Shown one piece after another: positions 54,449-56,200 of a DNA stretch of 64,000 nucleotides; the stretch's first letter is position 1; each line of letters opens with the position of its first letter. Below the pieces are notes generated by a model. That model ran no database searches. It was not told the DNA's origin and was given only the letters and a program-made list of their open reading frames with translations. This stretch comes from Terriglobia bacterium (GTDB lineage: Bacteria > Acidobacteriota > Terriglobia > 20CM-2-55-15). The translations under genes were made by a program, and so were the position numbers. Location of the stretch: positions 416,001 through 480,000 of the forward strand of contig CBDAOY010000005.1 in the NCBI GenBank assembly GCA_965198225.1. The letters run 5' to 3'.

Positions 54449-55180
54449 ATGGGGAAATCCGAAGAAGGCGGGGTCGGCCGCCGCAAGTTCCTCAAGGGTG
54501 CCGCCGTGACCGCCGCGGCCATCGCCGGACAAGGGCAGGTGGACGGCGCAGAACAACCCTCCGCCGAGAAACATGAACACCAGGCCGTGCCGTCAGACCT
54601 CGCGCTGCGGGTCAAGGCGCTCGAATCGGTGCTCGTCGAAAAAGAGATGGTCGACCCTGCTGAGCTCGATGCGGTTGTCGACAGATACGAGAACAGGGTC
54701 GGTCCCCGCAACGGCGCCCGGGTCGTCGCGCGCGCCTGGGTCGATCCTGCCTACAGGGCGCGCCTGCTTGCCGAGGCCACCGAGGCGATCGCAGAACTCG
54801 GGTACGGCGGGGGCCAGGGCGAGCACATGGTGGTGGTCGAGAACGAACCGAAGGTCCACAACCTCGTGGTGTGCACGCTCTGCTCCTGTTATCCCTGGCC
54901 GACGCTCGGCCTGCCGCCGGTGTGGTACAAGTCCGCTCCGTACCGCTCCCGCGCCGTGATCGATCCGCGCGGAGTGCTTCGCGAGTTCGGGCTCGAGCTG
55001 GGGGAAGACGTCGAGATACGTGTCTGGGACAGCACGGCCGAGATCCGTTACCTCGTGCTGCCGGAACGGCCGGACGGTACGGGGAACATGACCGAGGAAG
55101 AGCTTGCCGAAATCGTCACGCGCGACTCGATGATTGGCGTCGCGACCGTCCCGTCGCCGGAAGCGGGAGGCGGCGCATGA
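54449..55180 (+). CDS. nthA: Cobalt-type nitrile hydratase alpha subunit with N-terminal Tat-like signal
   Basis: VCTLCSCY (Co-type motif), [30 protein letters not shown]-terminal [18 protein letters not shown]. Confidence 0.93.
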
Positions 55181-55833
55181 ACAGCGTGCACGATATGGGT
55201 GGGATGGACGGCATGGGCCCCATCGAGCCGGAGCCGAACGAGCCTGTGTTTCACGAGCCGTGGGAAGGCCGGGTCTTCGCGCTCACTCTCGGGCTCGGTC
55301 CGTGGGGCCGGGGCCGCAACTGGAGGAGCTTTCGGTTCGAGCTCGAAAGCATCCCGGCTGCCGACTACCTGCGCATGTCCTACTACGAGCGCTGGTTCAC
55401 GGCGCTGCTGGTCAACCGGCTGATCGAGAGCAACCTCGTCACGCCCGCCGAGCTCGAAAGCGGTGAGGCCGACCCCGATCTGCCGCCACCGTCACTGCTC
55501 CCGGCGGCGGGAGGTGCGTCCCCAGGGTCCGGGCGTGGGGACCCTCCGGTGAGCCCGCAGTTTCGCCCGGAGCAGCAGGTTCGCGCGCGCAACCTGCACC
55601 CGCGAGGCCACATACGACTGGCACGCTACACCCGCGGCAAGCGCGGTACCGTGGTGCGCGACCACGGCGTCTTCGCCCTGCAGGACACCGACCCGAATGG
55701 GCAGACGCTCCGGGGTCGGCCGCAGCACGTGTATACCGTACGCTTCACCGCGGTCGAGCTTTGGGGCGATCGAGCCTCCGCTCGCGACACGGTATTTGTC
55801 GACCTGTGGGAGGACTACCTTGAGCCCGCCTGA
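55177..55833 (+). CDS. nthB: Nitrile hydratase beta subunit
   Basis: [51 protein letters not shown] overlap with the alpha gene. Confidence 0.93.
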
Positions 55834-56200
55834 TCGACAGGTCGAGGCGGAGCGGCTCGGTGCGCTGCCACCGCTGCCTCGCGATGAGGAAGGACCGGTG
55901 TTTGCCGAACCATGGCAAGCACAGGCTTTCGCGCTGGCGGTCAAGTTGTCCGAGCAGGGACACTTCACCTGGAAGGAGTGGGCGGGCGCGCTCGCCGACG
56001 AGCTCAAAGCGGCCGAGGCCCGCGGCGAACCGGACGATGGCTCGCAGTACTACCACCACTGGGTGGCTGCCCTCGAGCGACTCGTGACGGCAAAAGGCTT
56101 GAGTGATTCTCCGGCGCTGCTGGCGCGTAAGGAAGCCTGGGCCGACGCATACCGGCACACGCCTCACGGAAAACCCGTAGTGCTCCCTCCCTCGGACTGA
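55820..56200 (+). CDS. Nitrile hydratase accessory/activator protein (P14K/NhlE-like)
   Basis: PVFAEPWQAQAFALAV...FTWKEW...YYHHWVAALE...TPHGKPV; GGAGG then TTG 55820. Confidence 0.88.
   Translation: MSPPDRQVEAERLGALPPLPRDEEGPVFAEPWQAQAFALAVKLSEQGHFTWKEWAGALADELKAAEARGEPDDGSQYYHHWVAALERLVTAKGLSDSPALLARKEAWADAYRHTPHGKPVVLPPSD

Follow-up and report, generated by a model that had tools for sequence, protein, structure and literature searches.

A conserved twin-arginine signal on the alpha subunit of a cobalt-type nitrile hydratase that probably works outside the cytoplasm

The nitrile hydratase operon and its N-terminal extension

A three-gene operon for a cobalt-type nitrile hydratase (NHase), in which the alpha subunit begins with a predicted twin-arginine translocation (Tat) signal, lies on the forward strand at positions 54449-56200 of a 64,000-nucleotide stretch of DNA, hereafter the window, from a Terriglobia bacterium of the phylum Acidobacteriota (GenBank assembly GCA_965198225.1, contig CBDAOY010000005.1, positions 416,001 to 480,000). 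The genes for the alpha subunit, the beta subunit and an accessory protein are tightly packed: the alpha stop and the beta start overlap in ATGA, and TTG 55820 is the probable start codon of the accessory gene, whose small product is related to the N-terminal domain of beta. All three products exceed the cut-offs of their NCBIfam equivalog models (Table 1), and alpha carries the metal-binding motif CTLCSC, in which a threonine presumably marks the Co type and a serine the Fe type. An earlier note on this DNA had read the locus as a Co-type NHase with alpha, beta and activator genes, and these matches bear that reading out.

The best solved relative of the alpha core is 3qxe_A (1.3e-92), the alignment starting at query residue 40. 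The beta subunit aligns with 3qxe_B from residue 1, has the N-terminus MNSVHDMGG without an extension, and retains the arginines of FRF and RYTRGK, which we take to contact the oxidised cysteines. By these comparisons, the locus reads as an ordinary Co-type NHase core to which about 45 N-terminal residues have been added on alpha only. The His-rich HEHQ stretch before the core has a longer counterpart (HDHDHDHQ) in many homologues and is also found at the extreme N-terminus of signal-less relatives. An identity of alpha as thiocyanate hydrolase was rejected, since the TIGR03887 score (181 bits) is under the cut-off of 291.45 and the NHase model is passed. The operon copy is the only full-length NHase alpha in the source genome; short NHase-alpha-like matches (20-34 bits on PF02979 positions 112-174) were observed elsewhere in it (G000:C6:469442-469597, C8:1153062-1153754, C7:576579-576755) and are probably leader peptides of NHLP-type ribosomally synthesized and post-translationally modified peptides. 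The JGI names for the protein cluster of alpha are limited to 'nitrile hydratase' or 'nitrile hydratase subunit alpha', and other sources gave no name.

Table 1 Features of the NHase locus in window positions, with residue numbers referring to the alpha subunit
Feature	Position	Strand	Evidence
NHase alpha subunit, Co-type, 243 aa including N-terminal Tat signal	54449..55180	+	PF02979 8.6e-90; TIGR01323 301.7 bits (cut-off 249.85)
NHase beta subunit, 218 aa, without signal	55177..55833	+	TIGR03888 189.3 bits (cut-off 152.2); 3qxe_B 8.4e-50
NHase accessory protein (Co-type activator, self-subunit-swapping chaperone family), 126 aa, without signal	55820..56200	+	TIGR03889 101.2 bits (cut-off 46); PF21006 2.6e-10
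Predicted Tat signal peptide, residues 1-34	54449..54550	+	TIGR01409 19.8 bits vs cut-off 16.7; kept in 117/120 homologues
Signal n-region, residues 1-10			
Signal motif RRKFLK, residues 11-16	54479-54496	+	
Signal h-region, uncharged, residues 17-31 (G17-V31, 15 residues)	54497-54541	+	
Signal c-region DGA, residues 32-34; alternative AxA site A24-I25-A26			
His-rich HEHQ immediately before alpha core	54572..54583	+	H42, H44, Q45 nearly invariant (homologue alignment)
Metal-binding motif CTLCSC, residues 142-147, Co-type form	54872..54889	+	invariant in 120/120 homologues
GGGAG ribosome-binding site, 8 nt 5' of ATG 54449	54436..54440	+	direct sequence reading
Conserved upstream motif TGTATACTC, between ATG 54392 and ATG 54449	54412..54420	+	upstream alignment: window, L002, L003, partly L023

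The alpha N-terminus reads G-R-R-K-F-L-K (residues 10-16) where the Tat consensus is S/T-R-R-x-F-L-K, and this motif is followed by 15 uncharged residues and a c-region of small residues; the earlier note had described an RRxFLK consensus, a hydrophobic h-region and a plausible cleavage region. The NCBIfam model TIGR01409 (TAT_signal_seq) matches residues 11-27 with a score above its cut-off. In a six-frame scan of the whole 6.4-Mb genome the same model gave 14 matches over the cut-off, the NHase N-terminus among them (21.8 bits), and it matched none of ten signal-less NHase alpha controls. In an AlphaFold2 model of alpha built from 120 homologues, the predicted local distance difference test score (pLDDT) is below 50 at residues 1-44, with a short helix at residues 19-26; the core is confident, except for residues 146-150 beside the metal motif. 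Low model confidence and a solved-structure alignment that begins at residue 40 together suggest that the first approximately 45 residues stand outside the enzyme fold.

Conservation, partners and genomic context

Conservation was assessed in the 120 closest homologues, which are the best of 8000 scored and share 72-100% identity, and in the genome loci of the 80 best among 565 relatives, all 80 from metagenome-assembled genomes (MAGs). An RR pair followed by at least 10 uncharged residues is present in 117 of the 120 homologues, and within these 117 the position RR+2 is F in 116, RR+3 is L, I or M in 115, and RR+4 is K in 61. The RR pair has a median position of 11 and the uncharged stretch a median length of 16 residues with a median Kyte-Doolittle mean of 1.28, and an A-x-A occurs downstream of RR in 89 of the 117. 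The extension is thus retained among homologues; its absence there would, according to the earlier note, have counted against the signal. The three exceptions are P0017 (no signal), P0043 (a short uncharged run) and P0073 (HR for RR). At E <= 0.01, TIGR01409 matches 62 and TIGR02811 matches 72 of the 120. Two JGI clusters already hold PF10518 together with PF02979 in their precomputed annotation; the co-occurrence of Tat and NHase domains is already present, unremarked, in databases.

Farther from the window protein, about 9 of the 150 best representatives at 50% clustering have an RR signal. Ten proteins were picked from the 50%-cluster representatives: most of them carry an RR signal, four pass TIGR01409, P0177 is a fragment without RR, and P0255 resembles a chimera. 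Additional variants of alpha were observed. P0017 (282 aa) has two NHase_alpha stretches, a partial duplication. Five proteins of 307-334 aa (P0196, P0209, P0229, P0242, P0258) have a beta-like opening (M..HD.GG) that runs into alpha, which suggests beta-alpha fusions. P0257 (245 aa) is a more distant alpha-like protein with an Fe-type motif, CSLCSC, and a TIGR01323 score of 221.6 bits, under the cut-off; its N-terminus, RRHMIKTVARILGVTVVSPTLLASLGC, resembles a Tat signal with a lipobox, and export of an NHase-like protein may have arisen here independently.

The signal was found in 42 of the 80 genome loci, 39 by a strict rule and 3 as borderline cases. By phylum, the loci with and without signal number 38 and 24 in Acidobacteriota, 3 and 0 in Gemmatimonadota, 1 and 11 in Pseudomonadota, and 0 and 3 in other phyla. 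Of 401 evenly sampled genomes from the window's phylum, source genome included, 25 have an NHase alpha, and ten of these have the signal form, defined there as a match beginning at query residue 8 or earlier. The nearest relatives of the window alpha are in locus L023, which is labelled Acidobacteriota and is 86% identical in the core, and locus L002 (Gemmatimonadales).

A quick maximum-likelihood tree built from the core (81 rows) shows the signal-bearing forms mixed with the signal-less ones. Parsimony on this tree gives 11 label changes, where shuffled labels average about 27, and most branches are weak. A single origin of the signal was considered and set aside: the tree needs at least 11 changes, but the well-supported branches force only one, and the core tree establishes neither one origin nor many. 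A clade of Vicinamibacterales MAGs (L040, L041, L062, L069, L074) has an alpha that starts MAKSENGPAG...HEHHHDHQ, in which the n-region is kept and RR and the h-region are missing; this looks like a deletion of the signal. Signal-bearing and signal-less alpha occur together in two genomes, one a MAG that holds both L008 and L048, the other G069 (C7:267384-268109, C7:201665-202228).

The earlier note had described the beta subunit and the activator as lacking any signal, and this stands: in the window beta has no extension and the accessory protein has no signal. Among the signal-bearing loci, beta begins at residue 1, no more than 70 nt from the alpha stop, and has no RR motif in 35 of 42. The remaining seven are split alignments or spacing cases, none with a credible Tat signal on beta; the beta of L065 was flagged by the RR pattern search and dismissed on inspection of its sequence. 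The source genome encodes a Tat translocase made up of TatC (221.5 bits) and two TatA/B/E proteins (77.4 bits for one, 67.3 bits for the other). Clustering of the open reading frames (ORFs) of the loci was noisy, with shadow ORFs in high-GC DNA, and its sole yield was a link between the accessory protein and NicO-like Ni/Co transporters. The accessory domain is fused to such a transporter in two loci (L004:4826-5980 and L007:1550-2722, both on the minus strand; with 25.8 and 25.7 bits they narrowly miss the Pfam cut-off of 27.7), and in a third (L027:7758-8525, plus strand; about 26 bits, again just under 27.7) a NicO-like gene adjoins a signal-bearing NHase operon. Judged from these sequences, fusion and adjacency would fit a hand-over of cobalt on the cytoplasmic side, and direct transfer from importer to chaperone is possible.

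When ten window proteins were compared with the 80 loci by tblastn, only alpha, beta and the accessory protein recurred; in none of the 80 was there a match to HyuA/B, a creatininase-like gene or any other neighbour. The surrounding genes are not conserved alongside the trio, and the context gives no pointer to a substrate. Upstream, a cluster at 46528-54035 comprises AroM (PF07302), an S-Me-THD-like gene (PF06032/PF20906) and a hydantoinase-A-like gene, then HyuB and HyuA, with OPT and MFS transporters beyond; a gap of 413 nt separates it from the NHase operon, and it probably serves cyclic-amide or hydantoin use. Downstream, at a distance of 247 nt, a creatininase-family protein is encoded at 56448-57176 (plus strand; PF02633 4.2e-25, far under the NCBIfam equivalog cut-offs). 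It has a Sec-type signal, MRLSRSFLLVFVLVLMSGTTMSALA-QE, and its own promoter-like site at 56332-56360, lies beside NHase in 0 of 80 loci, and is followed by DUF4159 and others.

Immediately upstream of alpha, the window and L002, L003 and L023 share, approximately 30-50 nt 5' of the gene (54400-54420 in the window), a stretch GCGCCCGGCCGG..GAG.TGTATACTC with the imperfect palindrome GAGTGT|ATACTC. From its sequence, the TGTATACTC stretch is a possible -10-like element or operator (half-site). A scan of the region upstream of alpha for sigma-70 consensus promoters gave no promoter, and TGTATACTC was not called; an Rfam scan of 53900-56500 gave no RNA family.

Contigs from four RNA libraries match the window with 0 differences at 54443-54624, 54473-54729, 54824-55003 and 56024-56224. 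They are a weak hint that the signal-coding part is transcribed, as the contigs show no transcript ends and DNA carry-over is possible; stretches that no contig covers carry no information. The matching metatranscriptomic libraries are labelled 'sponge metagenome', and most homologues come from MAGs with soil- or groundwater-type labels.

Proposed export and alternative explanations

Taken together, the alpha N-terminus is a real and conserved feature that reads as a Tat signal and probably functions as one. The explanation that we favour, and consider reasonably likely, is that the signal on alpha exports the alpha-beta complex of this three-gene Co-type NHase operon. Alpha would be made in the cytoplasm, where the signal-less accessory protein would load cobalt and the two metal-ligand cysteines would become oxidised. 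Holo-alpha would then pair with the signal-less beta subunit, and the folded alpha-beta complex, probably alpha2beta2, would be recognised by TatBC via the RRKFLK of alpha and moved across the inner membrane, with beta hitchhiking through Tat on its signal-bearing partner. The signal would probably be cut by signal peptidase I, after A26 or A34, and the exported enzyme would be a periplasmic catalyst for the hydration of nitriles to amides. From what is established about Tat, no other route could carry such an enzyme across, since its cofactor and partner subunit have to be in place beforehand. The earlier note had likewise proposed cytoplasmic maturation and export as an alpha-beta complex, and three of its refuting conditions, checked on the sequences (signal predictors by proxy, the true start, the homologues), did not refute it.

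Several observations weigh against export. The Pfam model PF10518 (TAT_signal) scores 18.2 on alpha, under its gathering score of 22.7, so that the check by signal predictors suggested in the earlier note, made here with profile hidden Markov models as a proxy, came out divided: the NCBIfam model accepts the N-terminus and the Pfam model stops short of its threshold. TIGR01409 itself, at E <= 0.01, misses 58 of the 120 homologues. The c-region of the window has D at -3 (D32-G33-A34) where most homologues have AGA, and the cleavage site is therefore ambiguous. A periplasmic partner such as an amidase or a binding protein, conserved nearby, did not emerge from the tblastn comparison of ten window proteins with the 80 loci. 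All relatives found come from metagenome-assembled genomes or metagenomes. Signal-less close relatives are common (38 of the 80 loci) and are mixed among the signal-bearing ones on the tree; the signal is therefore dispensable for the enzyme as such. Finally, self-subunit swapping of Co-NHases involves apo-alpha2beta2, according to the available part of a 2020 review (PMC7193024). By analogy, swapping at this locus would need a cytoplasmic apo-alpha2beta2 that is itself signal-bearing and could be exported prematurely, a tension that would be eased either if the accessory protein holds export back or if assembly is direct.

The strongest of the competing explanations, although in our view an unlikely one, is that the N-terminal peptide does not in practice direct export and that the enzyme is wholly or partly cytoplasmic, the peptide having another role, such as docking of the accessory protein, or being the vestige of a signal; NarG, for example, carries a remnant Tat motif. 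The sister forms that work without the peptide and interleave with the others on the tree would fit this explanation, as would the Vicinamibacterales clade, in which the n-region persists without RR or h-region, and the lack of conserved periplasmic partner genes near the operon in the 80 loci. Vestigial Tat signals have, however, lost the consensus, whereas here RR and the uncharged stretch (117 of 120 homologues), F at RR+2 (116 of 117) and L, I or M at RR+3 (115) amount to the full consensus expected for TatC recognition. Moreover, lineages without the signal lack RR and the h-region together, and at least two genomes (L008/L048; G069) hold both forms, which fits two compartments.

Distinctly improbable is a variant in which the protein is Tat-targeted but its signal is not cleaved, so that the N-terminal segment keeps the enzyme anchored on the periplasmic side of the inner membrane. 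An Asp at -3, as in the V-D-G-A of the window c-region, is poor for signal peptidase I, and 28 of the 117 signal-bearing homologues have no A-x-A found downstream. Against tethering, the other 89 do have an A-x-A, the window offers A24-I25-A26, inside the h-region, as an alternative site, and the uncharged stretch (median 16 residues, 15 in the window), being Ala/Gly-rich with a median Kyte-Doolittle mean of 1.28, falls short, in both length and hydrophobicity, of what a stable membrane helix would call for.

It is hardly credible that the start has been mis-assigned, with translation beginning downstream, for example at the in-frame GTG 54587, and the 'signal' being an untranslated leader, because among 40 signal-bearing loci the homologous codon (V47) is GTG in no more than 11 and a non-start codon (GTT, GTC, GTA, ATC or CCC) in the others, change across the 45 upstream codons is biased towards third positions, the extension is conserved at protein level in 117 of 120 homologues, GGGAG stands 8 nt before ATG 54449, and initiation at V47 would lose the nearly invariant HxHQ stretch. 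The differences in the first 45 codons at positions 1/2/3 number 7/5/16 against L002 and 8/7/24 against L023, a third-position bias that has the appearance of a translated region under purifying selection. The closest homologues begin at a Met matching ATG 54449 (MAKSEEG...), and a longer ORF from ATG 54392 finds no support among them. In the earlier note, GGGAG had been placed before ATG 54449 and no Met codon between residue 1 and the core, both of which are seen in the sequence; the downstream start at GTG 54587 that it had considered is not the true one, as judged from the unconserved start codon and the codon changes.

A wider proposal is rather improbable as a whole. In it, the Co-NHases of Acidobacteriota and Gemmatimonadota would be a widespread lineage of Tat substrates, with the first non-corrin cobalt centre with oxidised Cys ligands to be exported folded; the accessory protein would be a Tat proofreading factor that holds alpha until cobalt is in; gain and loss of the signal would switch the compartment, some genomes having one copy per compartment; and host-associated members would hydrate nitriles that stay outside the cell, such as the defence nitriles of hosts or plants. 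The idea of host nitriles arises because the exact-match contigs come from RNA libraries labelled sponge metagenome. For Aplysina sponges, one paper describes an aeroplysinin-1 hydratase activity, so far unexplained, that is Mn-dependent, with peptides unlike NHases (PMC3766881). Any link from that activity to an exported NHase would be distant and speculative.

Comparison with known systems

Characterised NHases have so far been treated as cytoplasmic enzymes, as the earlier note also stated. They are important biocatalysts in industry and serve as a model of how metallocentres mature. A search of the searchable full-text literature, which leaves subscription-only papers and supplements outside its scope, returned no paper that links an NHase to a Tat signal or to a periplasmic or extracellular location; the papers in which NHase and Tat or periplasm co-occur concern other proteins, as far as their available parts go. 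The 2020 NHase review has 0 occurrences of periplasm or signal peptide (PMC7193024), and a 2026 Tat review has 0 occurrences of 'nitrile' and, in a passage on cobalt, lists cofactor classes without non-corrin cobalt (PMC13673990). If the explanation that we favour is true, a Tat-exported NHase would add a new cofactor class to the list of Tat substrates. It would also put the order of the steps in NHase maturation to a natural test, in which apo-alpha2beta2 swapping and direct assembly make different predictions when alpha bears a signal. Furthermore, it would suggest that abundant soil phyla without cultured members detoxify nitriles or scavenge nitrogen in the periplasm, and it would offer a ready pair of signal and enzyme for periplasmic or whole-cell biocatalysis without the limits of substrate uptake.

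The nearest solved system is the Co-NHase of PDB 3qxe/3qz5, which we take to be the Pseudomonas putida NRRL-18668 enzyme with its activator P14K. The window enzyme is like it in fold, in the CTLCSC site, in the order alpha, beta, accessory and in the His-rich stretch before the core. In contrast, the solved enzyme has no N-terminal signal, and the window alpha adds an RRKFLK signal of approximately 34-45 residues. The gamma subunit of thiocyanate hydrolase (PDB 2dd4/3vyg) belongs to a cobalt enzyme that is homologous to NHase and shares its type of metal site (8.1e-42 to 1.1e-43); however, alpha is under the TIGR03887 cut-off and the three-subunit architecture of that enzyme is not seen at the NHase locus.

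Cobalt enzymes exported by Tat are represented by the corrinoid reductive dehalogenases, as given in the available part of the 2026 review (PMC13673990). These share with the proposed system a cobalt enzyme that is loaded in the cytoplasm and has a Tat signal, but they are an unrelated family in which cobalt is held in a corrinoid, whereas the NHase protein binds cobalt directly. In another direction, Escherichia coli hydrogenase-2 is reportedly a Tat hitchhiker complex (Rodrigue et al. 1999, a reference of the 2026 review, PMC13673990). PaoABC is a Tat hitchhiker complex as well, in the available part of its source (PMC4273604). The likeness to these complexes consists in a signal on one subunit, signal-less partners and a cofactor inserted in the cytoplasm by dedicated accessory proteins, with co-export being a conjecture in the case of NHase; the difference lies in the NHase cofactor, a non-corrin cobalt centre with oxidised cysteine ligands. 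By this resemblance, the NHase may work as a Tat hitchhiker complex. The Co-NHases that bear the conserved Tat signal, in the window and in numerous soil bacteria yet to be cultured, probably act beyond the cytoplasm.

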